From Escherichia coli O157:H7 (GTDB lineage: Bacteria > Pseudomonadota > Gammaproteobacteria > Enterobacterales > Enterobacteriaceae), in NCBI RefSeq assembly GCF_013167455.1, contig NZ_CP038328.1: a DNA stretch of 64,000 nucleotides, one strand, 5' to 3'. A program made the translations under genes and the position numbers. The notes below the pieces were generated by a model. The model was not told where the DNA came from. It ran no database searches and was given only the letters and a program-made list of their open reading frames with translations. Positions 19,899 through 60,906 of this stretch are shown piece after piece (the stretch's first letter is position 1; the number at the start of each line of letters is the position of its first letter).

Positions 19899-20119
19899 CA
19901 GGCCACCTCCGCATTCATCAGGTCGTCATGGCAGCGTTGCACCACTCCATCCAGTTGCTCTGTCATCAGATAAATGAGGGAAACCAGTTGTTCGCATTGG
20001 GCACCTGCTGGCTTTTCATAACAGTCCTGCAGGGCTGCCATGCCAGTTACATACTCACCCACATTGCGTAAATGTTTCAGCCTTACAACATCGTCGTAGG
20101 AAATCTCAAACTGGTTCAT
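19898..20119 (-). CDS. Hypothetical small satellite-phage protein (epsilon-like position)
   Basis: 73-aa ORF translationally coupled to downstream ORF. Confidence 0.35.
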
Positions 20120-23164: not shown

Positions 23165-23169
23165 TATTA

Positions 23170-23442: not shown

Positions 23443-23462
23443 TTAGCAAAAAAAGCCCACGT

Positions 23463-23489
23463 AATCCCGGTCCAGTACTGGGATTTTTT
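23463..23489 (+). terminator. Rho-independent terminator after the ogr/delta gene
   Basis: AATCCCGGTCCAGTACTGGGATTTTTT: GC-containing palindrome followed by T6. Confidence 0.55.
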
Positions 23490-23851
23490 ACGCCTTTTCC
23501 CTGGCTGGCCTGAGAGCGCATGAGTGCATGTCTATAGCGCATGAAAACGCATGATTCTCATGCACCATTTTTGACGCGAAAGCCCTTGTGTGGTGGCTTC
23601 TGAGACGATTTGCGGAATGCATGAAAACCAGTCTGTTAAGCGAAGCGAGCAGGCGTGGGGGGCTGCGCGCGCTAAGGGGTTAGATTATAAAATATCAAAC
23701 GCCGGTGAGATCCATTATTGTGGAACCACCCGAAGGAAGTGTAGAGGCGAAAGTACCCAAAATAATTTTGCAAATTATTTAGAAATGAACTGAGCGCTCG
23801 AAACGAAATATAATTTCGAGCACCCCAATTAGCAGTTATATTTTTAATGTA

Positions 23852-24418
23852 TTAAACAGGATAAAAACCAGAGCTTCCATTCTTATTTAAGTTATGGATT
23901 TTATTTGCATCATTAATTTTTATTTGGAACGTCGGACCTTTATTCTCAAGAATTACAATCTGGAAATTATAGTCCCTTTTGATTAATGCGTGATAAAATG
24001 AATCACTGAGACTGACGCTATTAACATCCGATAGAGAACCCCCTCTATCTTTATCAAAGTGCGTCACTAATGGACTATCAAGCACAACAAATCCAATGAA
24101 TGGATTCCCTTTTCTTGATAAAAATTCCGCAAAGCAAATGGTAAATATAGCATGCATTACTGCACGGGTACCTTTACCAAACATTCCTCGGCGTTTCCCA
24201 TTGATATTAAAGTCATATGTATCTTCGTCAAATCGCACTTTGTTATCTTTAGAATTTTCAAAATTTATATCATTCAAAAAGTCTTGCATCGCTATTTCTA
24301 TATCATACAAATCAGCTACTGTTAAGGAGTCAAAGTCCTCGGCGGAGTATTTAAGTTCGTCAACATCATCTTCTTTATCTTGTAATGAAGATAGAATGCT
24401 ATGTTTTGTGTGATCCAT
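23852..24418 (-). CDS. Cargo ORF F: C-terminal ABC/SMC-like ATPase half (signature-like motif + Walker B-like)
   Basis: GKGTRAVMHAIFTICFAEFL followed by FIGFVVLDSPLVTHFD resembles ABC signature/Walker B/D-loop; start overlaps stop of ORF E (TAATG). Confidence 0.5.
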   Translation of the reverse strand: MDHTKHSILSSLQDKEDDVDELKYSAEDFDSLTVADLYDIEIAMQDFLNDINFENSKDNKVRFDEDTYDFNINGKRRGMFGKGTRAVMHAIFTICFAEFLSRKGNPFIGFVVLDSPLVTHFDKDRGGSLSDVNSVSLSDSFYHALIKRDYNFQIVILENKGPTFQIKINDANKIHNLNKNGSSGFYPV

Positions 24419-25008
24419 TAAAAGATTGTCTTTATATTCATAAAGTGATTCAAGAGATGAATGTATTGTTTTATATTTTTATCTTCTAACGTCTTAAAAT
24501 CACTTTTTTCTGATTGATAAATTTCATTAACATCATTTTTTCTTAACATAATTAATTCATGTTCGCGAACATTAGATCCGATTGATTCAATTAATCCTTT
24601 CAGCTGGCTTTTGATTTTCAATTTTTCTGCATTACACGACAAAAAACAATCATCATATGATATTTCATTTTCTTTTTTTTGCGGTGTATTACAGAACTCA
24701 CAATAAATATCTGCAAAATTATTTAAATAGAAATTCGCCTGTGATACAACATCTATTCTTTGTAGATCTATAAAGTATTGGTCTTTAAGAAGACTAAATC
24801 TTTCAATGAGTAATGATAAGTATTTTTCCCTGTCACTGATTGAATATAATTCATCACTTAACTCTTTTAATAATTGCTTCTTATCATCAAGTGCATCAAC
24901 AATACCTTTCAATATATCTTTCGATGATTCAATATCTTGCTCTACTTTCTCAAGTTCTCTTGAAACAATGACTTGATCATATTCAGGATAAATTAATTGC
25001 GCTTTCAA
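24418..25008 (-). CDS. Cargo ORF E: coiled-coil segment, likely middle part of the same ATPase
   Basis: 196 aa, K/E/L/D-rich helical composition; only TTG start; same frame as ORF D, separated by one TAA. Confidence 0.45.
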   Translation of the reverse strand: MKAQLIYPEYDQVIVSRELEKVEQDIESSKDILKGIVDALDDKKQLLKELSDELYSISDREKYLSLLIERFSLLKDQYFIDLQRIDVVSQANFYLNNFADIYCEFCNTPQKKENEISYDDCFLSCNAEKLKIKSQLKGLIESIGSNVREHELIMLRKNDVNEIYQSEKSDFKTLEDKNIKQYIHLLNHFMNIKTIF

Positions 25009-25038
25009 TTCCTCATAAATATTTGCAATTTGATTTTT

Positions 25039-25698
25039 TTAAAAATATCTTGCTTTTTTATTTGGTTTTTCTGCTAAGGAGTTAGTATCATCTCTCTGAG
25101 TTAAAAGGAATTTAAATTCAGACTTTCTTTTTGTCTCCTCGCTAGGAATATCAGAAAGAATTAACGACTTCTCAGTTAACACTCTTAATTCATCAATACA
25201 AAAAAATTCAAAAACATTATTAAGATTAAATTTATGAAGAGTATTACTTAAGTTTGTTCTTACTTTAGCCTCTTTGAAATTCAACCTACCATAAAAGTAT
25301 GATGAAAAACTCTTTTTAGACGAAGCACTTTTGGAAAAAACCATCAACAGATTAGCTTCACTAACATTTTCAATGCTCGAATCATATAATCTGTAATGGG
25401 CGCTATCCTGAAGAGACCTCTCAATTGTCATTACCCTACCTTGAAAATTAAATTCCAGATAGGCTAAATCATAACCTTGAGCATGATCGATATCTTTATT
25501 TTTTAGTTTTTCACTCCCTAATAAATATCGAATCAAATAATATATGTATGTTTTTCCAGAGTCAGAACCACCATATAAAATAGTCAATTTAGAACCAAAT
25601 TCAATTATAGCATCTAATTTATTGAATCCGGTTACCTTTATTTTTCTGAACGTAAAAAAATTGTCATTCATAATTAAATTCCATATCATATTTGCCAA
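25039..25698 (-). CDS. Cargo ORF D: N-terminal ABC/SMC-like ATPase head (Walker A)
   Basis: FRKIKVTGFNKLDAIIEFGSKLTILYGGSDSGKTYIYYL: SMC/AAA_15-like N-terminal strand plus Walker A GxxxxGKT. Confidence 0.55.
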   Translation of the reverse strand: MANMIWNLIMNDNFFTFRKIKVTGFNKLDAIIEFGSKLTILYGGSDSGKTYIYYLIRYLLGSEKLKNKDIDHAQGYDLAYLEFNFQGRVMTIERSLQDSAHYRLYDSSIENVSEANLLMVFSKSASSKKSFSSYFYGRLNFKEAKVRTNLSNTLHKFNLNNVFEFFCIDELRVLTEKSLILSDIPSEETKRKSEFKFLLTQRDDTNSLAEKPNKKARYF

Positions 25699-26137
25699 TT
25701 TTATTTTTTATAATTGATTGCAACTGCTCATCAGGAATATCACTATATAACTTAACCACCAAATTTATATTATGCTCCATCTGCGCAACATATTCATTAT
25801 GTAGAGAATTTGTAAATGCATATGTTTTTTCAGAAGCTTTATATACAAAACCACGATGTGTATAAATTTTTGAGGCTAGTTCATAGCCTTGCAACAAAGC
25901 CAATGATTCTAAAACAATCTCTCGTTTTAGGGCTAACTGAGCATCTCTACGGGGTATTGGAGGATGAAGACTAATCTCTTCAGGTAAAAAATCCTTAAGA
26001 TTTACTAAAATAAAATCAAAACAAATAAGCCGTTCAAGGCTTAATGAAGAAGGATAAATAGCGACGAGCACTTTCGCCATTCGACATGCCACTTCTAAAC
26101 TTGAATTATAAATTCTAACCATTATCTCACCGTCCAA
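25664..26137 (-). CDS. Cargo ORF C: hypothetical protein
   Basis: 157-aa ORF, AT-rich, overlaps neighbours by 16 and 35 nt; no recognisable motif. Confidence 0.4.
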   Translation of the reverse strand: MDGEIMVRIYNSSLEVACRMAKVLVAIYPSSLSLERLICFDFILVNLKDFLPEEISLHPPIPRRDAQLALKREIVLESLALLQGYELASKIYTHRGFVYKASEKTYAFTNSLHNEYVAQMEHNINLVVKLYSDIPDEQLQSIIKNKIGKYDMEFNYE

Positions 26138-26739
26138 ATTACTTCACCATCATTAACCAAATGATGGCATATTCCTTTTTTATCATTTGCTTCACATATT
26201 TTTGATAGTACTGAATGTGCAATTGGTGTCAGAACAGCCTGCTTCAAGACTGCATTACACCTAATAAATGCATAATTATGGTCTTCATAAAAGACGGGTT
26301 CAATTGAAGATGAAATGTAACATTTCAATGCTTTGAATACATCATCTTTAAATACTTCGCGGACAAAAACCTCAAGCGAAGATGCAAAATAAAAATCATT
26401 TCTACTATTATTAAAGTGTCGTCTGTATGGATCATCAAGCTCTAAGAAAGAACTATAAGTTTTATTTCCATGCTCTGAATAGGCTTGAAGCAGTGCATTA
26501 ACATATACAGACTCTTTTTTTGAATTGTATGTTGGAATTTCATTTGGAGGGATTCTCACGACATACAGCTCGTTAAAGTACTTAAAATAAAGGTGTGTAT
26601 TTGCAATATCATTTAAAATCAATGATAAGGGTAGAGAGTAAAAAATACTAAAATCAAAATCCTCAATATATTTTTTTATTTCATCATCTAATGGAATATC
26701 AATCTTTTTAGTTATTTTTTTGAAATTGCTGAATCCCAT
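26122..26739 (-). CDS. Cargo ORF B: hypothetical protein (possibly C-terminal part of a frameshifted gene with ORF A)
   Basis: 205-aa ORF overlapping ORF A by 28 nt across an A7 homopolymer. Confidence 0.4.
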   Translation of the reverse strand: MGFSNFKKITKKIDIPLDDEIKKYIEDFDFSIFYSLPLSLILNDIANTHLYFKYFNELYVVRIPPNEIPTYNSKKESVYVNALLQAYSEHGNKTYSSFLELDDPYRRHFNNSRNDFYFASSLEVFVREVFKDDVFKALKCYISSSIEPVFYEDHNYAFIRCNAVLKQAVLTPIAHSVLSKICEANDKKGICHHLVNDGEVIWTVR

Positions 26740-27017
26740 GAATCAAGGACTGCTTTTTTAAGCTCGTTTTTATTTTTCAATAAATTAGAAAATGTAGTAG
26801 ATAAATCATAGGGTGCCACAAAAAAGTACTTCTGAGGGATGGGATAATCACCATTCAGAGTAAAATAGATAAGTTTTCCAAACTCAACTACAACATCAGA
26901 GAACCCTAAACTTTTTTTGTACAGTTTGCATTGATAATTATCCCAAGAATAACCTTCTACGTTAGGATCCGATTTATATCCAACAACGTCTCTACCTTTA
27001 TCTCCAGCTCCTCCCAA
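26712..27017 (-). CDS. Cargo ORF A: Mrr-cat-like PD-(D/E)xK nuclease motif protein (no ATG start; possibly disrupted)
   Basis: GGAGDKGRDVVGY ... YQCKLYKK resembles the Mrr catalytic motifs (GDGGIDG ... QxK); frame stays open upstream to ATG GGA TGA TGA at 27087-27098. Confidence 0.4.
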   Translation of the reverse strand: MGGAGDKGRDVVGYKSDPNVEGYSWDNYQCKLYKKSLGFSDVVVEFGKLIYFTLNGDYPIPQKYFFVAPYDLSTTFSNLLKNKNELKKAVLDSWDSAISKK

Positions 27018-27130
27018 ACGTTCGCTCCACGGGTAATCATCTGATTTACAGACAATAAGCCAATCATGGACAAATACCTCCCATGTTCATCATCCCATGT
27101 CAATATTTCCGAAAGTGGTTGAGACACAAA

Positions 27131-28312
27131 TTAACTCCTTTTTAGTCTTTCAAATATCAAATTACTGTACCAGTCCATCATAGACTTCCTTCCACTAAAA
27201 TATTGAGCATGGTTATAAGTCCCCCTAATAGAATTTTTATCTACATGAGCCAACTGGATTTCAATCCAAGCACTCTCAAAACCTTGCTCATGCAGGATTG
27301 TAGAAAGGGTATGACGAAAACCATGTCCAGTGACTTTTCCTCCATACCCAATACGCTTAATGGCTTGATTTATACTCGCTTCGCTCATTGGCCTATTCGG
27401 ATCGTTCCGCCCTGGAAAAACATAACGATAGTTCCCTGTCATGATCTTGAGTTCATTGAGTAAATCTACCGCTTGAGATGATAAGGGCACAAGATGTGGC
27501 CTACGCATTTTCATCCTTTCAGCAGGAATTTCCCAAATAGCGTTATCCAGATCAAATTCTTGCCATAATGCCGCGCGTAATTCGATGGTTCTCACACCCG
27601 TAATCATCAGTAATTTCGTGGCTATCTGGACAAGCTTACTCCCGGAGTAACCCTCTAAGGCACGTAGAAAATCAGGTATCTCATCAGCTTTTAGGAATGG
27701 GAAATGATTGGATTGGTGTACTTCGAGAGCGCTGGAGAGATCAGCCGCAGGATTGTACTCCGCCCTACCCGTTGCAATTGCGTAGCGAAACACTTCGGAG
27801 CAACGCTGCCGCACTTTGCGCATTTTCTCCAACGCACCACGTTTCTCAATTTTACGCAGAACGTTCAGCAGCTCTAGCGGTTTAATCTCTCCCACAGGCC
27901 TTGTTCCGACATAAGGAAAAATGTCGTTCTTAAACGCTTCCATGATGTCTGATGCATATCCCGCCGACCATTTAGCAGATTTAAGTTGATGCCACTCTCT
28001 GGCTATCTTTTCGAAGGCGTTCTCTGACTCTGTTTGCATAGCTAGCTTTTGCTCTTTTCGAACCTCACTAGGGTTCTTTCCTTCTGCCACAAGTTTTCGA
28101 GCTTCATCACGACGGGAACGAGCATCGGCAAGGGTGATCGTTGGGTAAACACCAAGCGAGATCATTTTGGGTTTGCCGGCATAGCGATAGCGGAACCGCC
28201 AACTCTTGCTTCCATTAGGTTCTATAAGTAATGACAACCCTAGCCCATCTCCAAATGTATAGGCTTTAGCTTCAGGCTTAGCGCGGCGAATCTGCATATC
28301 GTTTAAAGGCAT
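27131..28312 (-). CDS. int: P4-type tyrosine integrase
   Basis: N-terminal P4-integrase-like region (AKAYTFGDGLGLSLLIEPNGSKSWRFRYRYAGK); C-terminal catalytic region with RxxHGFRHT..Y residues; adjacent to tRNA-derived att. Confidence 0.85.
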   Translation of the reverse strand: MPLNDMQIRRAKPEAKAYTFGDGLGLSLLIEPNGSKSWRFRYRYAGKPKMISLGVYPTITLADARSRRDEARKLVAEGKNPSEVRKEQKLAMQTESENAFEKIAREWHQLKSAKWSAGYASDIMEAFKNDIFPYVGTRPVGEIKPLELLNVLRKIEKRGALEKMRKVRQRCSEVFRYAIATGRAEYNPAADLSSALEVHQSNHFPFLKADEIPDFLRALEGYSGSKLVQIATKLLMITGVRTIELRAALWQEFDLDNAIWEIPAERMKMRRPHLVPLSSQAVDLLNELKIMTGNYRYVFPGRNDPNRPMSEASINQAIKRIGYGGKVTGHGFRHTLSTILHEQGFESAWIEIQLAHVDKNSIRGTYNHAQYFSGRKSMMDWYSNLIFERLKRS

Positions 28313-28474
28313 GTGTATAGGAATCCAGACCGAACAGGAACATATACACAATCCTATACACATTCAGTACCGGATTCTACTGGATGGTTACGGACTACTA
28401 TGGACTTAAAAGAATAAAAAATGTTATAAATCAGAGATTTTATGGACTAATACGGACGTTTGAGGAAGTTGAGA

Positions 28475-30746: not shown

Positions 30747-31616
<870 letters not shown>

Positions 31617-31676
31617 GTCTTTAAGTGATAAGCATAAACCGCAGCACGATCTTCTTGCATACGACGTGCTACGGTT

Positions 31677-32231
31677 TCATTTATCTCCGACCGGAAACTT
31701 CTTATACAGTGTCGATATACCAACATCATAGATGATCGCCACCTTTTGGCGAGGAACGCCTGATGCAATTAATCGCCCGGCCTGCGCCCATTGTTCTGGT
31801 GTAAGTTTGGGACGACGTCCACCAATTCGTCCCTGTGCGCGAGCTGCTTCCAGTCCAGCTTTTGTTCGTTCAACAATCAGTTCACGCTCCATTTCAGCCA
31901 GGGCACCCATCACATGAAAGAAAAAGCGCCCCATTGGGGTACTGGTATCAATTGAATCCGTCAGACTACGAAAGTTGATGCCTCGTTCGCGCAACTCCTC
32001 CACCAGCACGACAAGATGCCGCATACTGCGCCCCAGTCGGTCCAGTTTCCAGACCACCAGCGTGTCACCTGCCGATAATGTCCTGAGCAGCTTTTTCAGT
32101 CCTGGTCTGTCGGACTTTGTACCGCTTATCTTGTCTTCAAAAATCAGCTCACATCCTGCACACTCCAGCGCATTACGCTGTAATTCCGTATTCTGGTTAT
32201 TTGTTGATACGCGGACATAGCCAATAAGCAT
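31677..32231 (-). CDS. Serine recombinase DNA invertase (Pin/Gin/Hin family)
   Basis: MLIGYVRVSTNNQNTELQ N-terminus with catalytic serine, resolvase fold, C-terminal HTH; adjacent to inverted-repeat-flanked tail-fibre segment. Confidence 0.85.
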   Translation of the reverse strand: MLIGYVRVSTNNQNTELQRNALECAGCELIFEDKISGTKSDRPGLKKLLRTLSAGDTLVVWKLDRLGRSMRHLVVLVEELRERGINFRSLTDSIDTSTPMGRFFFHVMGALAEMERELIVERTKAGLEAARAQGRIGGRRPKLTPEQWAQAGRLIASGVPRQKVAIIYDVGISTLYKKFPVGDK

Positions 32232-32258
32232 GAGCATTCCCCTGAGTAAAAACCGGGG

Positions 32259-32672
32259 ATGATGCCAGTTAGCCATAATCTCTGCATTTTCTTAAACGTT
32301 GGTTTGGGAGAAGCGGCAAAACGGGATGTGGGGACAGGGGAAAATCAGATACCGGACATGGCCTCTTTTGCCAGTGGTGATGGATGGATGAAATTACCCA
32401 ACGGGAAAATCCTGCAATATGGTCGTGGTGCGGTTACGCCGACATTATCGACGCAAACAATGAGAATTACATTCAGCATCCCTTTCTCCAAAAAAGCGGA
32501 CTGCGCCATGCTTACTCATTCTGGTGATGGCGGTGCGCCTTTAGGCGCTGGGCGAGGGTTCGTGATGACTGCAGAAGGCCCAACGTTAACCGGCTTTAAT
32601 TCTGCTTACAGAACGTCATCAACCAGCGACACGGTATCGATGAATTACAGTTGGTGGGCTGTTGGTGAGTAA
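32259..32672 (+). CDS. Alternative tail-fibre C-terminal variable cassette (silent orientation)
   Basis: ORF begins at the crossover site (…NVGLGEAAK…) and lacks its own N-terminal domain; followed by its own assembly chaperone. Confidence 0.5.
   Translation: MMPVSHNLCIFLNVGLGEAAKRDVGTGENQIPDMASFASGDGWMKLPNGKILQYGRGAVTPTLSTQTMRITFSIPFSKKADCAMLTHSGDGGAPLGAGRGFVMTAEGPTLTGFNSAYRTSSTSDTVSMNYSWWAVGE
32287..32312 (+). repeat. gix/pix-like recombination site (left inverted repeat of the invertible segment)
   Basis: TTTTCTTAAACGTTGGTTTGGGAGAA; its reverse complement matches 34178-34203 over the first 14 nt and about 20 of 26 overall. Confidence 0.6.
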
Positions 32673-32683
32673 TTTTATTCAGG

Positions 32684-33136
32684 GTGATTTATATGAATGA
32701 ATATGTTTATAGCGCAAGGCATAATGCTTTTTTCCCTGTGGATATGATTGATAAATATAAATCAGAGGGATGGGATTTATCAGACGCTAAGGAAGTAAAT
32801 CAAAATATTATCAGTGAGTTTATGGCTGAACCGCCACAAGGAAAAATCCGTATTGCCGGAGATGATGGGCTGCCTGCGTGGGCAGATATTCCTCCACCCA
32901 CGCATGAAGAACTTATTGAAATTACTGAATCAGAAAGACAGCTACTAATTAACCAGGCCAACGAATACATGAACAGTAAACAATGGCCCGGTAAAGCCGC
33001 TATTGGTCGTCTGAAAGGTGAGGAACTGGCGCAATATAATTTGTGGCTGGATTATCTGGATGCACTGGAGCTGGTTGATACCTCCAGTGCGCCAGATATT
33101 GAATGGCCTACGCCTCCGGCAGTTCAGGCCAGATGA
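32684..33136 (+). CDS. Tail fibre assembly protein (alternative cassette)
   Basis: 150 aa; conserved Tfa-like C-terminus (…DYLDALELVDTSSAPDIEWPTPP) shared with the convergent Tfa ORF. Confidence 0.6.
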   Translation: MIYMNEYVYSARHNAFFPVDMIDKYKSEGWDLSDAKEVNQNIISEFMAEPPQGKIRIAGDDGLPAWADIPPPTHEELIEITESERQLLINQANEYMNSKQWPGKAAIGRLKGEELAQYNLWLDYLDALELVDTSSAPDIEWPTPPAVQAR

Positions 33137-33710
33137 CATCCGGCGCGGTGCTGGTATCTGTTGCCGTCACCGCGTCAATGTAATCCAGCACAGCGTTAAG
33201 TCTGGTTGTTTCTGCCTGCGTCGGTTTACGTCCGGCCTGCAATTTCAGTTGAATCAGACTGATGGAAGCCATTGCTGCATCAATCAGTGACTGGCGCTGT
33301 GCTTCTGCCGCTTCTACTGCGGCACCGTGTTGTGCCTCAGTATCTGTCACCCATTTTTCACCATCCCATTTATCGAATGGCGTTAACGGGGCGATAGTGG
33401 TTGTATTTTCAGGATAATCACCCGGAGCTGTGATTTCTTTGGCGTCTCCCGTTTCGGTGTTATAGACGATTTCACCGCGATGGTCTGGCACATATTCCCA
33501 TGAGTTTAAATCCATCGAACGGCAGATAGCATAACCCGCCTTATGTATACCAGGTTCATCCAGACAGGAATATGCAGGGATACCGACACCAATGGCAAGA
33601 TATTCATTTGAAGTAGAAATATATTCCCGAGTTTTACCATCATAGTTATAGACGGTAATATTCCCCGCCTTCGTGGCAATAAGCTCGCTATTTAATACGG
33701 CGTTATCCAT
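33108..33710 (-). CDS. Tail fibre assembly protein (expressed cassette)
   Basis: 200 aa; C-terminus …LDYIDAVTATDTSTAPDVIWPELP, a paralogue of the opposite-strand Tfa. Confidence 0.65.
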   Translation of the reverse strand: MDNAVLNSELIATKAGNITVYNYDGKTREYISTSNEYLAIGVGIPAYSCLDEPGIHKAGYAICRSMDLNSWEYVPDHRGEIVYNTETGDAKEITAPGDYPENTTTIAPLTPFDKWDGEKWVTDTEAQHGAAVEAAEAQRQSLIDAAMASISLIQLKLQAGRKPTQAETTRLNAVLDYIDAVTATDTSTAPDVIWPELPEA

Positions 33711-52084: not shown

Positions 52085-52378
52085 ATGAAAAAAATGTTAT
52101 TTTCTGCCGCTCTGGCAATGCTTATTACAGGATGTGCTCAACAGACGTTTACTGTTGGAAACAAACCGACAGCAGTAACACCAAAGGAAACCATCACCCA
52201 TCATTTCTTCGTTTCGGGAATTGGACAGGAGAAAACTGTTGATGCAGCCAAAATTTGTGGCGGCGCAGAAAATGTGGTTAAAACAGAAACCCAGCAAACA
52301 TTCGTAAATGGATTGCTCGGTTTTATTACTTTAGGCATTTATACTCCGCTGGAAGCGCGGGTGTATTGCTCACAATAA
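52085..52378 (+). CDS. bor: Bor-family outer membrane lipoprotein (serum-resistance moron)
   Basis: MKKMLFSAALAMLITGCAQ lipobox; about 97 aa; opposite strand to the lysis genes. Confidence 0.7.
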   Translation: MKKMLFSAALAMLITGCAQQTFTVGNKPTAVTPKETITHHFFVSGIGQEKTVDAAKICGGAENVVKTETQQTFVNGLLGFITLGIYTPLEARVYCSQ

Positions 52379-52409: not shown

Positions 52410-52868
52410 CTATCTGCACTGCTCATTAATATACTTCTGGGTTCCTTCCAGTTGTTTTTGCATAGTGATCAGCCTCTCTCTGAGGGTGAAATAATCCCGT
52501 TCAGCGGTGTCTGCCAGTCGGGGGGAGGCTGCATTATCCACGCCGGAGGCGGTGGTGGCTTCACGCACTGACTGACAGACTGCTTTGATGTGCAACCGAC
52601 GACGACCAGCGGCAACATCATCACGCAGAGCATCATTTTCAGCTTTCGCATCAGCTAACTCCTTCGTGTATTTTGCATCGAGCGCAGCAACATCACGCTG
52701 ACGCATCTGCATGTCAGTAATTGTCGAGTTCGCCAGCTTCAGTTCTCTGGCATTTTTGTCGCGCTGGGCTTTGTAGGTAATGGCGTTATCGCGGTAATGA
52801 TTAGCCCATGACAAGCAAACGATGATGCAGATAACCAGAGCGGAAATAATCGCGGTTACTCTGCTCAT
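52410..52868 (-). CDS. Rz i-spanin
   Basis: N-terminal TM helix then coiled-coil periplasmic domain; follows endolysin. Confidence 0.75.
52469..52651 (-). CDS. Rz1 o-spanin lipoprotein embedded in Rz (+1 frame)
   Basis: Lipobox LVVVGC followed by proline-rich [15 protein letters not shown]; entirely within Rz. Confidence 0.7.
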
Positions 52869-53344: not shown

Positions 53345-53680
53345 TTACTCCTTAGAGCCACCAAATTTGTTACCGATTACTCGCATTGCAGCCCCACGAA
53401 TAGCATCGACACCGATCAGCCCCACCCCACCACCAATGGCAACAGAAAGTGATTTAGGCCATCCGACATACTCAAGAGCGGATGCAAAGGTCAGCGTCAG
53501 AGCGCCACATAGCAAAATCTCGAGCGTTTTTCGCTTCCAGCCACCACCACCGCCAAAATAGGCGATGCGCAAACCAGCCATAACGATCGACATAATCACT
53601 GCACCCAGCGGTGTGTCTCCACGCCACCAGCTCTGAAACAACTCCAGCCAGTCCGGCCAGGTATTTGGGTTATGAGGCAT
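53345..53680 (-). CDS. Holin (class I-like; start uncertain, ORF open to 53776)
   Basis: Three hydrophobic segments and charged C-terminus; immediately upstream of endolysin. Confidence 0.55.
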   Translation of the reverse strand: MPHNPNTWPDWLELFQSWWRGDTPLGAVIMSIVMAGLRIAYFGGGGGWKRKTLEILLCGALTLTFASALEYVGWPKSLSVAIGGGVGLIGVDAIRGAAMRVIGNKFGGSKE

Positions 53681-53816
53681 TTCGTCATCTCTCACCTCGC
53701 GATATTTGCGGGTGCTGTGTTGGAAATAAAAAGGCCACGCAACGTGGCCACCAGAATTATTTCCCCACCAGTTCACTTACCTCTTTCACCGTCTGATTAA
53801 ACCGCTCTGACTCAAG

Positions 53817-54131
53817 TTAAACACCTAACGCCCGACGCCCCAGCGCCATTGCTGCTTTTATTGTGGAACCGAATCCCATAAAGAAATCAGCAACCAGATC
53901 ACCAGGTCGACTACTGGCATTGATTATTTGCCTGAGCATATCCGCCGGTTTCTCGCACGGATGTTTACCCGGGTAGAACTGAACGGGCTTATGCGTCCTG
54001 ACATCGGTATAAGGCACGGAGACTGATACGGAGAAATAGCGCCGGTGAGATTTAAACTCATCCAGCAATTCAGAAGATTTGCAATTCAGTGAATCATGAG
54101 ATACCACCAACTGGTGGTAGGATTGTCTCAA
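53817..54131 (-). pseudogene. Fragment of N6-adenine DNA methyltransferase (C-terminal part only)
   Basis: HPCEKP and DFFMGFGSTIKAA resemble MTase catalytic and SAM-binding motifs; 104-aa ORF with no N-terminal domain. Confidence 0.45.
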
Positions 54132-54302
54132 CTAGTGAGCTTTATACATTTAAGTGCGATGCACAGATAATAACCACGCCAATGGAATATCACACACAAA
54201 ATTGATAGAACACTAACAATAAGCCACAAAATAATTCACAATTTATTTTTACAGTGGATAAGTAGCAAAGTAGTGAATGTGAATAACGGCTAACTAAGAT
54301 GA

Positions 54303-54330
54303 AACAAAAAGCCCCACAATATGTGGGGCT
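54303..54330 (-). terminator. Rho-independent terminator downstream of the moron genes
   Basis: Minus strand AGCCCCACATATTGTGGGGCTTTTTG hairpin plus T-run. Confidence 0.5.
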
Positions 54331-54388
54331 CCTTCGCGATTTATAGTAAAATAATCGATTCTCTAGCTGAAAAAATCTTTAAAAATTA

Positions 54389-54622
54389 TCAGCAATACGC
54401 AAGTTTTTTACCGTCATCCGGTACTAGTTTGATCACTACACCAGGATTCTTACGCTCTAACATCTGAGTTTGACTCCATGTAATACCAAAGGTTTCCATT
54501 GGAGATGCATTGCCAGCAAAGAGTTCGGCGACGACTTTAGCTGCCTCAATCTCTATCTGCTCATGATGTTTCATAAAAATCCCCTTGTTCAGCACTAAGC
54601 TGTAGTTGCTTCTTTGAAGCAT
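54389..54622 (-). CDS. Hypothetical small protein (moron; probable start at internal Met, about 61 aa)
   Basis: ORF between Q and lysis cassette, bracketed by terminators; no motif. Confidence 0.35.
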   Translation of the reverse strand: MLQRSNYSLVLNKGIFMKHHEQIEIEAAKVVAELFAGNASPMETFGITWSQTQMLERKNPGVVIKLVPDDGKKLAYC

Positions 54623-54765
54623 AAAGGCAACAAAGTTTGTTACCTGAAGATGTATAAAGTAAAGCGTAGTACATTTTGTGTGTGCTTTGTGTGGATCCAG
54701 ATTGCATCAACTAAAAGAGGTTTTCAATACTTTTGTAATGATTCTGGAGAAATTAAGAATCTAAC

Positions 54766-55308
54766 TCACACTGATTGGTTAGGTAAAACGCTCCTAAGCA
54801 CCATTGCGCAACCACCTCGTTCGTAATCAGCAATGTACTCAAAACCACTTTCAGTATAGTATCTTATTGCCCCATCAACTGGACTAACTAAAGCTATCGA
54901 ATCAATAGATTCACCCTGAAGGTTCAGAAATCGTGCATATGCAGAGAAGCAATCCAAAACGATACCAAGCATCTGATGGTCTAGGTCTTCATGTGCATCA
55001 TTACGTTTTTCCATCCAGCAAATATGCACCGCATTTTTCGGCTTACAGTAACACCCAAATGCAAATCCAATAGGCTCCCCACGATAATAAACAACTAGTT
55101 TTATCGGGTGTTCTTCCATCATATCCATAAACACTCGCGACTTTAGTCCGGGATCCCACCGCAGTTTATTGTTAGCCTTGAGGAACTCCATATCTTTTAG
55201 TACCAGCTCGTCGGCATATACGAGCCCTAACGACTTATGAGGGAAGCGCCCTTTTAAATACTCTGCAACATTTTTAAATACTGCTGTTTGGAAGGCTTGA
55301 AACATCAT
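54766..55308 (-). CDS. Hypothetical protein, possibly GNAT-fold acetyltransferase-like (moron)
   Basis: C-terminal …DGAIRYYTESGFEYIADYERGG… resembles GNAT motif B; 180 aa. Confidence 0.35.
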   Translation of the reverse strand: MMFQAFQTAVFKNVAEYLKGRFPHKSLGLVYADELVLKDMEFLKANNKLRWDPGLKSRVFMDMMEEHPIKLVVYYRGEPIGFAFGCYCKPKNAVHICWMEKRNDAHEDLDHQMLGIVLDCFSAYARFLNLQGESIDSIALVSPVDGAIRYYTESGFEYIADYERGGCAMVLRSVLPNQSV

Positions 55309-55386
55309 GTCGATCCAGACGAGACGAAAGTTTAAATTCTACCTACTCGCCGAATACCATTTCAATGCCACACATCTAAAATTCCG

Positions 55387-55414
55387 AAAAAAAACCCGCA
55401 CATCAGCGGGTTTT
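55387..55414 (-). terminator. tR'-like rho-independent terminator just downstream of Q
   Basis: Minus strand AACCCGCTGATGTGCGGGTT followed by T8. Confidence 0.6.
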
Positions 55415-55519
55415 CTACTTTTTATTAAAGCCGGACACACAATGCCTATCATTGAGAAAATATTATCCATTTTTTTTGAAAAATGCAAGCATCATGTCGC
55501 CATTTTCGTCGAAAATCAT

Positions 55520-56272
55520 TCATCTCGTCACTTTCCTCAATTGTGTCTCAGCATACGCTTCTTCCTGCCAGCACTTTGTAACCAGTTTATCAATGACATC
55601 TGCATATCCTTTGTACCACTGATAATCCGTCAGGTCTGGTACCAGCTTCTGGACATGAAGCCGCGCCAGTGTGGTTGGTAAACGGCTAAACCGGTTTCCA
55701 TTGCAACGCCCACAAACCTTATAAACAGGCGTGCCATGAAGCCTGGTTCTTTTTTCATCCAGGACAATACCTTTACCCTTACACCCTCTGCACGCTGTGC
55801 TGACTTCTCCCTTACCATGACAATGCTGACACAGTTCCTTCACCCACTCTTCCTTGATAACAGATTCCCCGCTTCTGGAGTGTTTCACCACCTCGCGCAA
55901 TACATCATGAAATCCAGTACCAGCACAATGCTCACAGCGAGCCTTACTTGCCGCAGACCTGGAATAATCAGCAAAGGCAAAATTCACAAGGTAAGGAATG
56001 ATCTGTAGCCGGGTTTCTTCACTCAATTTGTTCAATGTCGGGTTATCCAGTGCCATCGCGTAATTGAGCAGACCTTCAATCGCAAACTGAGGATCCTGAA
56101 CACCAACTTTTGCCAGGAATAAGGCAAACCCAAGCGGTGCTTTCGACTGCACCATCCCCTGCGCAGCCATTACATCCGTAATTGTTAAACCACCAGAGCC
56201 TGTCGCCGGTGCGTCATCGCTCAATTTTGGAGATTTTGGGGAGTAATATTTCGGTAAGGCTTCAAAGTTCAT
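55520..56272 (-). CDS. Q: Late antiterminator Q
   Basis: 250 aa; Cys-rich zinc-binding region (CEHCAGTG…CQHCHGKG…CRGCKGKG…CGRCNG); position before tR' and lysis genes. Confidence 0.75.
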   Translation of the reverse strand: MNFEALPKYYSPKSPKLSDDAPATGSGGLTITDVMAAQGMVQSKAPLGFALFLAKVGVQDPQFAIEGLLNYAMALDNPTLNKLSEETRLQIIPYLVNFAFADYSRSAASKARCEHCAGTGFHDVLREVVKHSRSGESVIKEEWVKELCQHCHGKGEVSTACRGCKGKGIVLDEKRTRLHGTPVYKVCGRCNGNRFSRLPTTLARLHVQKLVPDLTDYQWYKGYADVIDKLVTKCWQEEAYAETQLRKVTR

Positions 56273-56285
56273 GCTCGTTCTCCAC

Positions 56286-57281
56286 TTACGCCAGTACGCC
56301 TATTGCCAGCGCACGATCGATAAAACGAAATATCAGCTCCAGCTGGGAGCCATACTTCTCTTCAAATGCCACGGTATCCGCATGCAGCTCGTCGTGATGC
56401 TTTCTGCACAAAGGCAACACAAAGAGGTCATGCGCTTTTGTACCCATTCCTCCCTGACCGTGACCTATCAGGTGGTGGGGATCATCAGCAGGCTTTCCAC
56501 AACATGCACACGGCTGTGTCTTAACCCAGCGCGTGTACTTTTCATTAACCCAGCGGCGACGTTTTGGGCGTAACATAAAAGACTCCGGCGACTCAGGATC
56601 CACTTTCAGCGCCAGCACCTTTTTCGCTTTATCCTGGATGATGCTGGTGGCAGGAACCGAAGGCACAAGGTCACTTTCCCGGGTAACAGACGGCACAACA
56701 GGCTTCGGTAATCTAAGTGCCTTACGGGCTGCACTTTCCGGTAAGGCATCCGCCAGGTCATTACGAATCAGCCACCAGCACAGTTCCGGCATTGTCACAA
56801 CGTGACTGTCATCAAAACCGAGATCCCGACGCACAACAGACAACACCCAGCGGGCACAGTTATCCGTTGCCATTGATTCCAGCCGTTCCGTGAACTGATC
56901 GCGCAGCTGGTTATCGCAGTGCCAGCACAGACGGATTGCGCCCGGAGCGTGTCGCATTGTGGTCATGTTCTCGCTGTGCCAGTCGGAATGAGGCCACTGG
57001 CAGCCTTTTTCACGAAGTAACCAGCTTTCAAGACATTCCACGCCACCAGCACGACGGATCACTGCCTCATTGCGGAACACGGCCCGAACGGCAGGATCAT
57101 CCGCCAGCGGTTGTGATGCCGCCGGAACGGCACCACTGGCGAAAGATGAATAACGTTCCGGCTCAGGCTCCAGCAGGACACGCCCCTGCATAAACAGGGG
57201 CATCAGCTCTGAACCTGGCCTGAACAATACGATCCCCATACGCGGGGCAATTTCAGGAGTCAGTAGTGCTCTCACGGTCAC
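56286..57281 (-). CDS. DUF968-family phage protein (YdfU-like)
   Basis: 331 aa; C-terminal Cys/His cluster (CACCGKPADDPHHL…CRKHH); lambdoid Nin-region position. Confidence 0.55.
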   Translation of the reverse strand: MTVRALLTPEIAPRMGIVLFRPGSELMPLFMQGRVLLEPEPERYSSFASGAVPAASQPLADDPAVRAVFRNEAVIRRAGGVECLESWLLREKGCQWPHSDWHSENMTTMRHAPGAIRLCWHCDNQLRDQFTERLESMATDNCARWVLSVVRRDLGFDDSHVVTMPELCWWLIRNDLADALPESAARKALRLPKPVVPSVTRESDLVPSVPATSIIQDKAKKVLALKVDPESPESFMLRPKRRRWVNEKYTRWVKTQPCACCGKPADDPHHLIGHGQGGMGTKAHDLFVLPLCRKHHDELHADTVAFEEKYGSQLELIFRFIDRALAIGVLA

Positions 57282-57282
57282 C

Positions 57283-58092
57283 TCAATGAACGGTATCGAG
57301 CAGCTTTAACAGCTCAGGGAATCGGGATTCGAAGAAATGCGGCTGCGTCTCGCGCGGATTTGCGGGACTGGTGATGTTCTTGCCGAACATGCAGCCTTTC
57401 GCTGTCAGCGACCAGAATTTTTTGATGTTGTTAATCGCAGTGCGGCTGTATCGTTCACGTTGTTCAACGATCCCCAGCTTCGCCATCTGGTGATATGCCT
57501 GATTAGCTGTCAGGCGGATACCATACTGCTTCAGCAGTGCACTCAATGATAGCGTGGGGCGGCTTGAGCCATCAGGCGCGTCAGCAGGAGCATCAATGGC
57601 ATAGCGCGGTGCCAGATTCGGTAAGCCAACAGCCTCCTGGAGTTTCTGACAGGCACCAAGCACTGAAGAGTTAGACAGGTTTAACTCCCGGCGCATAAAG
57701 TCCAGCAGGATCACGCCAGCCTGCATCTTGTCAGCAGCCTGTCCGGATAATTTTTCCGGTGCGCTGGTTACCATATCGAAAGTACGGATCACCTTCAGAT
57801 GGAATGACGGGCTGATCCACATTGCATAGGCATACACCAGTTCCTTGCAGACATACGTTCCCCGTTCATTTCCCCCATGAATCACACTCACCGGGTCAAC
57901 ACCCAAATTCTGGGTGTTGGTCAATTCATGAACAAGCTCAACAGTTTGTTGGCTGGAAAGAAACTTTCCCGGCTCCTTGGTTCTGGCATTTGCACCAGAT
58001 GCTACTGCTGCGCGATGCAGATCGTTCAGGCTGTAACGCCCATAAGCATCACGACGAACTTCAATACCATCAATGACCATCAGATTATTCAT
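57283..58092 (-). CDS. KilA-N domain protein
   Basis: N-terminus MVIDGIEVRRDAYGRYSLNDLHRAAV typical of KilA-N/APSES. Confidence 0.6.
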   Translation of the reverse strand: MNNLMVIDGIEVRRDAYGRYSLNDLHRAAVASGANARTKEPGKFLSSQQTVELVHELTNTQNLGVDPVSVIHGGNERGTYVCKELVYAYAMWISPSFHLKVIRTFDMVTSAPEKLSGQAADKMQAGVILLDFMRRELNLSNSSVLGACQKLQEAVGLPNLAPRYAIDAPADAPDGSSRPTLSLSALLKQYGIRLTANQAYHQMAKLGIVEQRERYSRTAINNIKKFWSLTAKGCMFGKNITSPANPRETQPHFFESRFPELLKLLDTVH

Positions 58093-58111
58093 ACTTCGTT
58101 TCTCCTCTTAA

Positions 58112-58501
58112 TCAGGCGGCTGCACCCGCCGTTTTCTCGTACTTACTGATAGTGATCTCGACCTTCCCTTCCGGGATAACCGGTCCCCACTCCACCAGCA
58201 TTCTTTTCACCTGACTGTCGTCTTCCCACACACCCGCGTGGGTCAGGGCGTCAAACAGCGCCTTGTTATAGTTGTCCAGATCGCGGATCCGGTTATCCGG
58301 AGGAAACAACACGATCTCCACTGAAGCAGGTGCCGACGTTGGTTTCGGCAGACGACGTAACTGCTCAACTATTGCTGCGCACGCCGCGCTCTGGAATTTT
58401 CGCCCCGCCGCGCTTATCAGGCTCTTACCAGCAAACGCCCCTTTGTTGGGGTGTCGCCAGTACGTGTTCACGCTGGGCGGAAAAGGCAGGATCAGCTTCA
58501 T
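58112..58501 (-). CDS. rusA: RusA-like Holliday junction resolvase
   Basis: MKLILPFPPSVNTYW… characteristic RusA N-terminus; 129 aa. Confidence 0.8.
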   Translation of the reverse strand: MKLILPFPPSVNTYWRHPNKGAFAGKSLISAAGRKFQSAACAAIVEQLRRLPKPTSAPASVEIVLFPPDNRIRDLDNYNKALFDALTHAGVWEDDSQVKRMLVEWGPVIPEGKVEITISKYEKTAGAAA

Positions 58502-58824
58502 ACTTTCAGGTCCCTCTCATGTAACCAGTGGGTTGCACGCAGCCTTGCGTTTTCCTCACCGGCAAGCAGTGCGCGGATAATCCCGACCGCCTCGCTGTCG
58601 TCGTCCTTCACCGCGGTATGAAGCGTTATCCCCCGGGCCACGCCACGCTTTATCGTGATGACGCCTTTTTTCTCCAGTGCGCGAAGATGCTCCACCGCTG
58701 CATTCACTGAACGGTATCCCAGCATGGTTGCCACCTCCTGATTGGTTGGCGGGAAGCCACGTTCTTTCTGATAAGAAATCAGCATATCCAGCACCTGCTG
58801 CTGGCATTGAGTTAACGTCGTCAT
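58498..58824 (-). CDS. LexA-N-terminal-like winged-helix DNA-binding protein
   Basis: LTQCQQQVLDMLISYQKERGFPPTNQEVATMLGYRSVNAAVEHLRALEKKGVI resembles the LexA DNA-binding domain; no peptidase domain. Confidence 0.5.
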   Translation of the reverse strand: MTTLTQCQQQVLDMLISYQKERGFPPTNQEVATMLGYRSVNAAVEHLRALEKKGVITIKRGVARGITLHTAVKDDDSEAVGIIRALLAGEENARLRATHWLHERDLKV

Positions 58825-59474
58825 GCCGCCATCTCCCTGACCAGTTTTTCTGCCTGCTGGCGAACCTGCGCCAGAAAGGCCTCACCACATGCCTCAAGTT
58901 CATAGCGCCCGATGTAGCTGATTGCCGGTCCCTTCCAGGTCTTGTCGAAAACAGCAATAGCACCAGCGAAGAAAGCGCCTGTCGGCACCTGCTTCTCATC
59001 CTTCGGGATAAACCAGGCAGGCAGTTCAAAACCAATACGCCCGCGAATAAAAGCAATATGATCTGCATCTTCCGGCCACCACACTTCGCTGGTGGCAGCT
59101 TTGATCAGGAAAACATAGCGCCCGCCTTTATCACGCATGGCACTGGCATGCTTCATGATGTAACGCATGCCGGTGATGTATTGCCCCTCATGCTGACTGG
59201 CGCGGCTGTATGGGGGATTACCAAAGGCAGCACCTTTAAGCTCCGCAAGACGTTCTGACCAGTCATGCGCCAGCGCGTTGTCTTCCGCAGTGTAATAAGC
59301 GGCACATTTGGCGTTATCACCGTCAGTGAACAGATCCAGAACAAACGGGCCAAACAGGGTGTTAATTCCCCAGAAAATGTTGTCCGGCGTGCGCCACTGA
59401 TCGCCCACTTCCTTCAGTTCATGGGCTGGTTTGTTCCGCAGCTCCACCAGCGCCTGGCAATATTTATTACTCAT
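58821..59474 (-). CDS. Phage N6-adenine DNA methyltransferase (Dam-like)
   Basis: NPPY catalytic motif (AAFGNPPYSRA); ORF open to 59507, ATG at 59474 preferred. Confidence 0.7.
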   Translation of the reverse strand: MSNKYCQALVELRNKPAHELKEVGDQWRTPDNIFWGINTLFGPFVLDLFTDGDNAKCAAYYTAEDNALAHDWSERLAELKGAAFGNPPYSRASQHEGQYITGMRYIMKHASAMRDKGGRYVFLIKAATSEVWWPEDADHIAFIRGRIGFELPAWFIPKDEKQVPTGAFFAGAIAVFDKTWKGPAISYIGRYELEACGEAFLAQVRQQAEKLVREMAA

Positions 59475-59968
59475 TAAGCCCCCACGTAATTCCCTGACAG
59501 ATACCACTCTTCACCCGATACAGCGCGCTTGCTGCTTTTCCGTAAGCACCGCTCACGACGCGCCAGAAAATTGTTTCGTTCTGGCTGGGAGTGGCTTTCA
59601 CGGAATGCCGCCATCCACACCGTTGCAGCACGACGGTATAAGCCCCTGGACTCCAGTTCTTCAGCCTGGCGGGTCAGGCACAAAATCACCCGGGGATCGT
59701 TAGTGCCGACATAGAAATTGCGCACAGGTCTGGTTTCACGAACTGGTTGTGGTTCCGGCTCCTGCGCTCTCTCAGTCAGGCGCGGGAAATGTCTGCGTGT
59801 ATCCCCTTCACAACGGTGAGCCACACGCCCACTCTGACGTAACTTGCTTGCAGACTGCAGAACGCGCTGCCGTGAGTAACCTGCAAAAGCATCCGCAATG
59901 TCTCCGGAAGTACAGCCCGGATGGGCTTCAATGAATTTCTGAACGTCATTCAAAAGACTCATGCTCAC
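59474..59968 (-). CDS. Hypothetical phage protein
   Basis: 164 aa, basic, between replication and methylase genes. Confidence 0.35.
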   Translation of the reverse strand: MSMSLLNDVQKFIEAHPGCTSGDIADAFAGYSRQRVLQSASKLRQSGRVAHRCEGDTRRHFPRLTERAQEPEPQPVRETRPVRNFYVGTNDPRVILCLTRQAEELESRGLYRRAATVWMAAFRESHSQPERNNFLARRERCLRKSSKRAVSGEEWYLSGNYVGA

Positions 59969-60906
59969 CCCCTGAATCCTGCCGGGATCTGGCTGTAGTC
60001 CACGTTGTCGTAACTGGCTTTGAAGTACGGGTCCTCGCGTTTTTCGGTGTACGTGCTGACGGACGGCGATAAGCGCAGGGAAAGCTCATCCCATTTTTCC
60101 CGCAGCTTCGACGGGCTGAGCACGTTACGGCACCAGAACGGATCGCGACTGACGCGGCTGTACATCTCGCAGATTTGTTTATGAGTACGACCATCCTGCA
60201 CACACATCAGGCGAATTTCGTTTGCCCAGGCTGTCCAGTTCGGTTCTTTGGGACGAACCACCTCGCCGTCACATTCGGCGGCATGCTCGTACAGGGCGAT
60301 GATTTTTTTCCAGAGCCACTGTGCACAGGTCAAATCATCCTGCGTCCCCCACTGGCGCTTTTTAGGGCTGAATACAACCGCATCAGGATGGCGAGTTAAA
60401 AAATCCTGTTCATCCGTCTGCGTGTCCGGTTGCGAAGCGTCCGGACGAGAAGGTTTTTTATCTGACGGATCATGTTTTGATTTTACTGACGGATCCCCGC
60501 CAGATTCTGACGGGTGAAAACCCGCTTTTTTGCCAGATTTCGACGCATCAAATTTTGACGGGTCAGATTTTGATGCGTCAGATTTTGACGGGTCAGAATC
60601 TGACAGTTGAGAAAATGCCGCTGCCTGAAGCTTCGCAACGTTAAGCTGATAAACATTCGACGCATTGCGGTTACCCTGGCGACGCGCCTTACGCGTTAAC
60701 CAGCCTTCTGCTTCCAGCCGTGCGATAGCCGTTCTGACGGTGCTCATCCCCGCGCCAATCTGGCGGGCAATGGTTTCAATTGATGGCCAGCACACACCTT
60801 CGTCATTACTGAAATCAGCCAGGCGGGCCATAATTGCCACGCTGGATAACTTCATGCCTGACGCAGCGCAACCATCCCATACATAGCCGGTTAATTTAGT
60901 GCTCAT
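59965..60906 (-). CDS. Replication initiation protein (lambda O-like, iterons embedded)
   Basis: N-terminal winged-helix region, internal repetitive SKSD/ASKS linker encoded by DNA iterons, C-terminal domain. Confidence 0.6.
   Translation of the reverse strand: MSTKLTGYVWDGCAASGMKLSSVAIMARLADFSNDEGVCWPSIETIARQIGAGMSTVRTAIARLEAEGWLTRKARRQGNRNASNVYQLNVAKLQAAAFSQLSDSDPSKSDASKSDPSKFDASKSGKKAGFHPSESGGDPSVKSKHDPSDKKPSRPDASQPDTQTDEQDFLTRHPDAVVFSPKKRQWGTQDDLTCAQWLWKKIIALYEHAAECDGEVVRPKEPNWTAWANEIRLMCVQDGRTHKQICEMYSRVSRDPFWCRNVLSPSKLREKWDELSLRLSPSVSTYTEKREDPYFKASYDNVDYSQIPAGFRG
60450..60610 (+). repeat. Iteron array (putative phage replication origin) inside the replication gene
   Basis: About eight tandem copies of TGACGG(A/G)TCA-like units (e.g. 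GATTTTGACGGGTCAGATTTTGATGCGTCAGATTTTGACGGGTCAGAATCTGACAG). Confidence 0.55.

Follow-up and report, generated by a model that had tools for sequence, protein, structure and literature searches.

In a 64,000-nucleotide stretch of the Escherichia coli O157:H7 chromosome (NCBI RefSeq assembly GCF_013167455.1, contig NZ_CP038328.1; the whole stretch is hereafter called the window) we have found what is very probably an SfV-like myovirus prophage with two unrelated DNA methyltransferase loci, one of which is intact while the other is a dead relic left after a single exchange event. The intact early gene belongs to family PF05869 and codes for an orphan Dam-like adenine methyltransferase, whereas the relic, which lies just ahead of the lysis genes, comes from a beta-class enzyme of family PF01555. 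An original prediction made from the letters of the sequence had noticed an NPPY-bearing early gene and a separate 104-aa fragment with C-terminal methylase-like motifs, and had ascribed the fragment to module exchange or decay. Both loci are ordinary in the sense that they are already named in the RefSeq/PGAP annotation; what goes beyond the original prediction is that the two methylases are of unrelated families, that the parent of the relic was of the M.EcoGII type, and that the replacing DNA is a self-contained cassette of two genes.

The prophage makes up the right half of the window, with its genes on the minus strand, and is integrated at the tRNA-Thr gene thrW beside proA. It combines a contractile tail of the Mu/SfV type with a head of the HK97 type and lambdoid regulation, and other O157:H7 chromosomes (e.g., NZ_CP066753.1) are 100% identical to the window. 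From the replication to the lysis genes its order is identical, gene for gene, to that of Shigella phage SfV, i.e., PerC-like orf40, dam, the LexA-domain gene orf42, RusA, KilA-N, DUF968, Q, orf47, orf48 (DNA methyltransferase), S, R, and Rz, and the window departs from this order at orf47/orf48. By blastn, DNA identity to SfV is about 95% on either side of this one break. All prevalence counts given below refer to 5426 complete E. coli genomes, and the coordinates of the main features are collected in Table 1.

The intact Dam-like gene of the early region

The 217-aa product of the early gene matches PF05869 over profile positions 3-167 of 169 (E=5e-45, 153.6 bits) and the NCBIfam model TIGR01712 'phage_N6A_met' over positions 1-165 of 165 (253 bits), the curated cut-offs being 28.1 and 97 bits, respectively. 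With these full-length matches, and with NPPY at residues 86-89, the predicted N6-adenine methyltransferase was borne out. Alignment with T1 Dam and M.EcoVT2Dam showed that all of the family-invariant positions (DxWxTP, LD, NxxC, NPPYS, SxxW, and GRxxF) are kept. PGAP names the product 'phage N-6-adenine-methyltransferase', and both PGAP and SfV start the gene at the ATG at 59474, while the mechanical open reading frame reaches a GTG at 59507. The protein is equal in length and 99% identical to the Dam proteins of SfV and of Stx2 phage 1720a-02, and the gene is therefore intact. No match to PF02086, the alpha-class family of classical E. coli Dam (EcoKDam/T4 Dam, in which FxGxG is N-terminal and DPPY C-terminal), was returned for the protein, which matched PF05869 only; the term 'Dam-like' is apt as a family name and for the probable target, and not as a statement of membership in the E. 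coli Dam family. A sequence search of the PDB gave no meaningful match.

The gene overlaps its neighbors on both sides, its start codon sharing nucleotides with the stop of the PerC-like gene and its stop codon with the start of the LexA-domain gene. Its place is thus inside the early right operon, in the nin-type region between the replication genes and Q; RusA, KilA-N, and DUF968 genes are also among its neighbors. No restriction-nuclease partner was seen near it in the Pfam and PGAP annotation, and PADLOC returned methylase models only; the enzyme is therefore an orphan. It was detected in 2119 genomes (39%), in 1724 of them at full length, which places it among the commonest prophage genes of E. 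coli.

By analogy with characterized members of PF05869, the target of the enzyme is probably GATC. M.EcoVT2Dam methylates GATC (PMC6602927), M.EcoT1Dam has the same target, and M.Btr190III, a relative of T1 Dam, acts on GATC with marked off-target activity (PMC4996451). We propose that the gene would be silent in the lysogen and would be transcribed with the delayed-early operon after induction, and that the enzyme would then draw on S-adenosylmethionine and, through NPPY, methylate adenines of the replicating phage DNA, most likely at GATC, so that the DNA of the progeny phage would be fully modified. In methylomes, methylation at GATC would be masked by host Dam.

Several points tell against this picture of target and timing. 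Identity to M.EcoVT2Dam is no more than 31%, and to T1 Dam 24%, and so low an identity to the characterized GATC enzymes, together with an insertion after NPPYS and with differences in motif I and at the C-terminus, means that specificity is not transferable with confidence. The prophage contains 126 GATC sites where 125 are expected, a count which says nothing on specificity. The proposed timing of expression is read from the order of the genes and nothing else. SfV has an annotated dam promoter (TTGCGC / TACGGA), which is weak, with a -35 that differs in the window (TGGCGC), and it was not relied on.

The alternative that survives best is that the enzyme is real and its target is not GATC, so that another or a relaxed specificity would lay down a new methylation pattern rather than duplicate that of host Dam. 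We regard this as possible, if the less likely of the two. It draws on the identity of only 24-31% to the characterized GATC enzymes, on the insertion after NPPYS and the C-terminal extension that are specific to this subfamily, on the off-target activity of M.Btr190III (PMC4996451), and on the presence of a non-homologous PF02086 methylase in the same slot of a related prophage. What speaks for GATC is that the characterized members of PF05869 that were found all target this sequence, i.e., M.EcoVT2Dam (PMC6602927), M.EcoT1Dam, and M.Btr190III (PMC4996451), and that every family-invariant position is retained in the window protein. Methylomes of Shiga toxin-producing E. coli and of ST131 strains (PMC6602927, PMC4659465) report no extra motif, but lysogens usually keep genes of this kind silent, and carriage of the 217-aa gene by those strains is unchecked. 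GATC thus stays our best guess.

The related prophage just mentioned (L017, positions 747-2504) has, ahead of its LexA-domain gene and RusA, a 585-aa PF02086 methylase where the PF05869 enzyme would stand. The occurrence of non-homologous PF02086 and PF05869 methylases in one slot suggests that some adenine methylase is favored there.

The decayed methylase of the late region

For the 104-aa fragment, predicted to hold C-terminal methylase-like motifs only, profile searches gave matches far beyond chance, so that the outcome named as a refutation of the prediction, a lack of methylase homology, did not occur. The PF01555 match is confined to the end of that profile (Table 1), and the fragment also matches PADLOC model PDLC03265 (4e-39) and phrog_6952 (8e-54); PGAP describes it as 'DNA methyltransferase, incomplete, missing N-terminus'. 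The methylase-derived DNA extends further than the annotated pseudogene, in that the stretch homologous to the intact gene runs from 54126 past the premature stop as far as the natural stop at 53757-53759. The reading frame of the relic itself retains residues ~229-329 of a 350-aa parent. In a tblastn search residues 235-350 of SfV Orf48 matched the relic at 91% identity, and the missing N-terminal part of Orf48 had no match elsewhere in the window. The fragment lies 137 bp upstream of the holin start annotated by PGAP at 53680, and the gap between the two still has the terminator-like hairpin of the SfV-type layout.

What is left of the gene has decayed. The premature TAA stands 20 codons ahead of the natural stop, at a position which is glutamate in all intact alleles, and a Ser to Phe change has turned the motif I sequence FFMGSGST into FFMGFGST. 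These two are among four substitutions unique to this lineage, all four of which alter the protein. The ratio of nonsynonymous to synonymous change (pN/pS) is 0.46 between the window relic and SfV and 0.12 for the intact pair SfV-mEp460. The decay that had been predicted is thus seen in the remaining 3' third of the gene, as GAA to TAA and Ser to Phe. There is no ATG start and no Shine-Dalgarno sequence before the TTG of the relic. Of the methylase motifs it has motif I (FxGxG) only, without DPPY (motif IV); of the target recognition domain (TRD; residues 160-237 of M.EcoGII) the break at codon ~229 leaves only the last few residues; and an uninterrupted frame of ~350 codons is absent. Judged on its sequence, the relic is a non-functional descendant of the beta-class M.EcoGI/GII subfamily and not a functional member of it.

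The intact counterparts, SfV Orf48 and mEp460 gp53, are beta-class proteins of 350 aa, in which TDPPYF spans residues 33-38 and FFMGSGST lies close to the C-terminus. SfV Orf48 has 81% identity to the phage 1720a-02 methylase, which Murray et al. describe as very similar to M.EcoGII (PMC5778455), and it shares 280 of 349 residues with M.EcoGII itself. M.EcoGI and M.EcoGII are non-specific beta-class adenine methylases borne by prophages of E. coli O104:H4 (PMC5778455); in lysogens both are silent, and a role in shielding phage DNA against a broad range of restriction systems is ascribed to them (PMC5778455; PMC4659465). The protective role of phage orphan methylases which the original prediction had invoked agrees with this literature (PMC5778455). 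In M.EcoGII the catalytic core is made up of residues 1-134 and 260-349, with the TRD at 160-237 (PMC11551740). The relic aligns to residues 227-330 only, at 70% identity, and therefore the N-terminal half of the Rossmann core has been lost, along with both the dimer interface and the four-helix TRD. Full-length genes of the parent type were found in 1143 of the 5426 genomes and the relic in about 100. From these likenesses the parent of the relic would be a non-specific adenine methylase of the M.EcoGII type, carried as the first cargo of the late operon. Weighing against this account of parentage and decay, the surplus of protein-altering changes in the relic is based on few sites, namely the four lineage-specific ones, and the ~80% identity of Orf48 to M.EcoGII is approximate, the sequence of the latter having been machine-read, with obvious reading errors, from the supplement of PMC11551740. 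M.EcoGII is in wide use today as a tool for non-specific m6A. The relic lineage would have lost blanket adenine methylation, and its phages should thus be more exposed to restriction in new hosts.

It could be argued that the remnant of 104 codons still yields a small protein with a function, for instance a domain that binds S-adenosylmethionine or a poison subunit for the dimeric beta-class methylases of competing phages. The formal retention of FxGxG, the persistence of the remnant in 97 genomes, and the fact that beta-class methylases work as dimers (PMC7544214) would fit such a role. We hold it to be very improbable, as the remnant has neither an ATG nor a Shine-Dalgarno sequence before its TTG, and half of the Rossmann core (M.EcoGII residues 1-134; PMC11551740) is missing. 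The premature stop and the Ser to Phe change are both absent from the sister lineage described below, which indicates that the sequence has not been held constant; all four lineage-specific changes alter the protein, and PGAP calls the locus a pseudogene.

The replacing cassette

The exchange itself can be read from the breakpoints, which lie at 55388/55387 and 54127/54126. Between them 1145 bp of SfV have been swapped for 1261 bp of unrelated DNA with a GC content of 39%, compared with ~48-54% in the flanks, and the module exchange that had been predicted is thereby found. What has gone, in terms of SfV, is orf47 together with the tail of the post-Q terminator on one side and the 5' 683 nt of orf48 on the other. 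An origin of the remnant in mere loss or erosion of part of the methylase gene, with no exchange of modules, might be expected, as prophage genes most often end in deletion and point-mutational decay is indeed present in the relic. This reading has next to no probability, however, and is refuted by the finding that unrelated DNA (1261 bp) of different GC content (39% vs ~48-54%) stands in place of the lost 1145 bp, and that this DNA carries two conserved genes which occupy the same position after Q, without a methylase, in other genera.

The two genes of the cassette code for proteins of 180 and 61 aa, neither of which matched Pfam, NCBIfam or PADLOC, and their PHROGs families are of 'unknown function' only. 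The AlphaFold2 (AF2) model of the 180-aa protein, built with 24 homologues, has a predicted local distance difference test score (pLDDT) of 86 and a predicted template modeling score (pTM) of 0.84. In Foldseek searches with this model the top 50 PDB matches were all GNAT acetyltransferases and the BFVD matches were almost all acetyltransferases (E ~1e-6, template modeling score ~0.5). The protein is thus predicted, from its modeled structure, to have a GNAT (Gcn5-related N-acetyltransferase) fold. The canonical Q/RxxGxG/A acetyl-CoA loop is not found in it. The loop that follows strand 4 has the sequence KRNDAHEDLDHQ, which does not vary within the family and lacks glycine altogether; this KRNDAHEDLD segment stands where the loop for the pyrophosphate of acetyl-CoA is usual. 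Such a non-canonical loop would predict that acetyl-CoA is bound weakly or not at all.

The same gene pair occurs in prophages of Proteus and other enterobacteria at 46-83% identity (e.g., L015 6001-6898 and L017 6001-6921), the small partner having 61-63 aa. There, too, Q (of one or the other of two different families) comes immediately before the pair, and the lysis genes follow it. No methylase relic was found beside the pair in Proteus and the other genera; the association with the relic is thus specific to the E. coli event, and the cassette is therefore an established unit of post-Q cargo that in E. coli recombined into a late region which carried a methylase. Where the pair is absent, the occupant of the post-Q slot is the anti-restriction methylase of the M.EcoGII type, or else stx, and the alternation of the GNAT-fold gene pair with the methylase confirms the slot as a site of exchange. 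As for expression, a promoter-like site upstream of the 180-aa gene matches the sigma-70 consensus and a strong terminator-like hairpin closes the cassette. This promoter is a consensus match only, such sites being no more frequent in the region than in shuffled sequence.

A type II GNAT toxin-antitoxin cassette was considered and rejected for want of support: the small gene lies ~190 bp downstream, and not upstream of or overlapping the GNAT-fold gene, and has no antitoxin-type domain in Pfam, NCBIfam or PADLOC. Tentatively, and with a good deal of doubt, the pair could be a module of phage-host conflict (anti-defense, superinfection exclusion or lysogenic conversion) which substitutes for blanket DNA methylation.

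History of the junction

The cassette is present in 97 of the 5426 genomes as a single copy, in each case beside the relic and at the same junction, and both are also found in the deposited phage genome vB_EcoM-689R6. This one junction, shared by all, therefore points to a single exchange event. In the scenario that we propose, the ancestral phage would have carried a 350-aa methylase of the M.EcoGI/GII family directly after Q, as SfV and mEp460 still do. One recombination would then have put the 1.26-kb AT-rich two-gene cassette in the place of orf47 and the first two thirds of the methylase gene, including DPPY and the TRD. After truncation the SfV-type lineage, to which the O157:H7 prophage belongs, would have gained the nonsense codon, the Ser to Phe change, and two further changes.

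A sister lineage is represented by CE0011b and Ec-050, in which the relic is free of the nonsense codon, keeps GSGST and is followed by a different lysis module (essD/rrrD). Its relic is of the window type up to 54076 (the first 56 nt; 11/11 informative sites) and of the mEp460 type from 54046 (nt 86) on, and downstream of the relic these genomes are 100% identical to mEp460. The switch from window type to mEp460 type is therefore the trace of a crossover within the relic, which joined the cassette to the late genes of another phage. A dead gene fragment thus persists as linker DNA, providing homology for the exchange of neighboring modules.

With respect to the intact alleles, the first 56 nt of the relic (54131-54076) have 11 substitutions, seven of them amino-acid changes, and are far more densely substituted than the remainder. 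This cluster is common to both relic lineages, and it may go back to an older divergent allele or to damage at the junction.

Annotation and neighboring features

Table 1. Position and basis of the features discussed (coordinates are those of the window).
Feature	Coordinates	Strand	Basis or remark
Orphan phage N6-adenine DNA methyltransferase gene, 217 aa, WP_001303054.1, SfV dam / K-12 yfdM type	58821..59474	-	PF05869, TIGR01712, PGAP
NPPY codons, catalytic motif IV, aa 86-89	59208..59219	-	Invariant vs T1 Dam, M.EcoVT2Dam
PerC-like (yfdN) gene	59474..59968	-	Stop overlaps Dam-like start (TAATG)
LexA-DNA-binding-domain gene	58498..58824	-	Start overlaps Dam-like stop (ATGA)
Antiterminator Q gene	55520..56272	-	PF03589 E=8e-53; marks start of late region
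Hairpin downstream of Q, candidate tR', equivalent to SfV-annotated terminator	55391..55414		Left breakpoint at its end
Replacement cassette, moron-like, 1261 bp, 39% GC	54127..55387	-	blastn breakpoints vs SfV, mEp460
Sigma-70 promoter-like site TTGAAA-18-TAGAAT, 10/12	55336..55365	-	Consensus match; just within cassette, upstream of 180-aa gene
180-aa gene, WP_021519681.1, phrog_11949, predicted GNAT (acyl-CoA N-acyltransferase) fold	54766..55308	-	AF2 + Foldseek
61-aa gene, WP_000680348.1, phrog_11292, conserved partner of GNAT-fold gene	54389..54574	-	PGAP, PHROGs
Strong intrinsic-terminator-like hairpin, 13-bp stem + T run, closes cassette	54306..54334	-	Follows the 61-aa gene
Methyltransferase remnant, 104 codons from TTG, PGAP pseudogene	53817..54131	-	PF01555 N6_N4_Mtase E=7.3e-18, profile positions 156-209/221
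Full methylase-derived DNA, SfV orf48 codon ~229 to natural stop; M.EcoGII residues ~227-349	53757..54126	-	blastn + alignment
TCC to TTC, Ser to Phe in motif I, FFMGSGST to FFMGFGST	53871..53873 (change at 53872)	-	FxGxG formally kept
Premature stop TAA (GAA to TAA)	53817..53819	-	GAA/GAG (Glu) in all intact alleles and in Ec-050/CE0011b remnants
Terminator-like hairpin in relic/holin gap, kept from SfV-type layout	53733..53749	-	Precedes holin S gene
Lambda-family holin S	53345..53680	-	PF05106 + PGAP; first lysis gene downstream of relic

The idea that the early gene codes for an enzyme like phosphoadenosine phosphosulfate (PAPS) reductase and not for a DNA methyltransferase, which is suggested by the RefSeq product name of SfVp41, by several phage records, and by the name of phrog_33262 ('phosphoadenosine phosphosulfate reductase'), can be dismissed as having next to no probability, since the phrog_33262 match is limited to positions 283-492 of 495, the methylase part of a fusion family, and PF05869 and TIGR01712 span the whole of a protein in which NPPY is present. 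The 'PAPS reductase' label on SfV dam is an annotation artefact, best explained by carry-over from fused proteins.

In the neighborhood of the two loci, the lysis genes include an out-of-frame Rz1-type lipoprotein open reading frame within Rz (52469-52651, minus strand), and just beyond them, on the opposite strand, lies an iss/bor serum-resistance lipoprotein gene (52085-52378, plus strand). The replication gene at 59965-60906 codes for a 313-aa protein with a helix-turn-helix and contains 4.3 copies of a 15-bp unit at 60534-60597, which encode a repetitive SDPSKSDASKS peptide; by analogy with the lambda O gene, these repeats may be the iterons of an origin. At 30843-33797 a pinE-type invertase is accompanied by alternative tail-fibre and tail-fibre-assembly genes, an invertible host-range segment, and the end of the prophage has a gene for a LEM-3-like GIY-YIG nuclease. 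Elsewhere in the window, a P4-like satellite at 16100-28400 carries an alpha primase-helicase, an Icd-like gene, psu, ogr/delta, and its own integrase. It also includes a block annotated as 'ABC-three component system' with an AAA ATPase (25039-26739), which is plausibly defense cargo in its variable region.

Comparison with known systems

The closest relatives of the Dam-like enzyme are SfV dam (orf41) and the 'DNA adenine methyltransferase' of phage 1720a-02, both of 217 aa and 99% identical to the window protein, with 2-3 amino-acid differences. Their surroundings are also those seen in the window, with the PerC-like gene upstream and the LexA-domain gene and RusA downstream. In K-12 the corresponding gene yfdM of CPS-53 (NZ_CP064680.1 2465598-2465864) is a truncated copy with 41% of the gene length, and thus the Dam-like prophage methylase, too, can be met as a relic in other strains. 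M.EcoVT2Dam (VT2-Sakai orf32) and T1 Dam likewise belong to PF05869; they are orphan enzymes, borne by phages in the early/nin region, and share DxWxTP, LD, NPPYS, SxxW, and GRxxF with the window protein. Unlike them, the window protein has an insertion after NPPYS, LDLFTD in place of LD[AS]AAS near motif I, and a longer C-terminus.

On the side of the relic, M.EcoGII and M.EcoGI share with SfV Orf48 the order DPPY - TRD - FxGxG and the same prophage setting, and by this likeness to M.EcoGII the SfV/mEp460 allele has a putative non-specific activity. The window relic differs from M.EcoGII in the loss of residues 1-228, with DPPY, the dimer interface, and the TRD, and in its stop codon, and so cannot be an enzyme. 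The 3' thirds of SfV orf48, mEp460 gp53, and the DNA methylase gene of phage cdtI are 88-89% identical to the relic in protein and ~92-95% in DNA. Each of these genes is complete, at 1053 bp, and lies in the same position as the relic between Q and the holin gene; the window has also kept the terminator that precedes S in the SfV-type layout.

The cassette, finally, can be compared with phage morons, which are self-contained insertions composed of promoter, gene, and terminator (PMC3594210). It resembles them in a GC content unlike that of its flanks, in its promoter-like site and strong terminator, and in its place between two phage modules, at the same Q-proximal cargo site where the Stx phages carry stx. 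It differs from them in that its promoter is known as a consensus match only and in that it has replaced resident DNA rather than merely being added to it.

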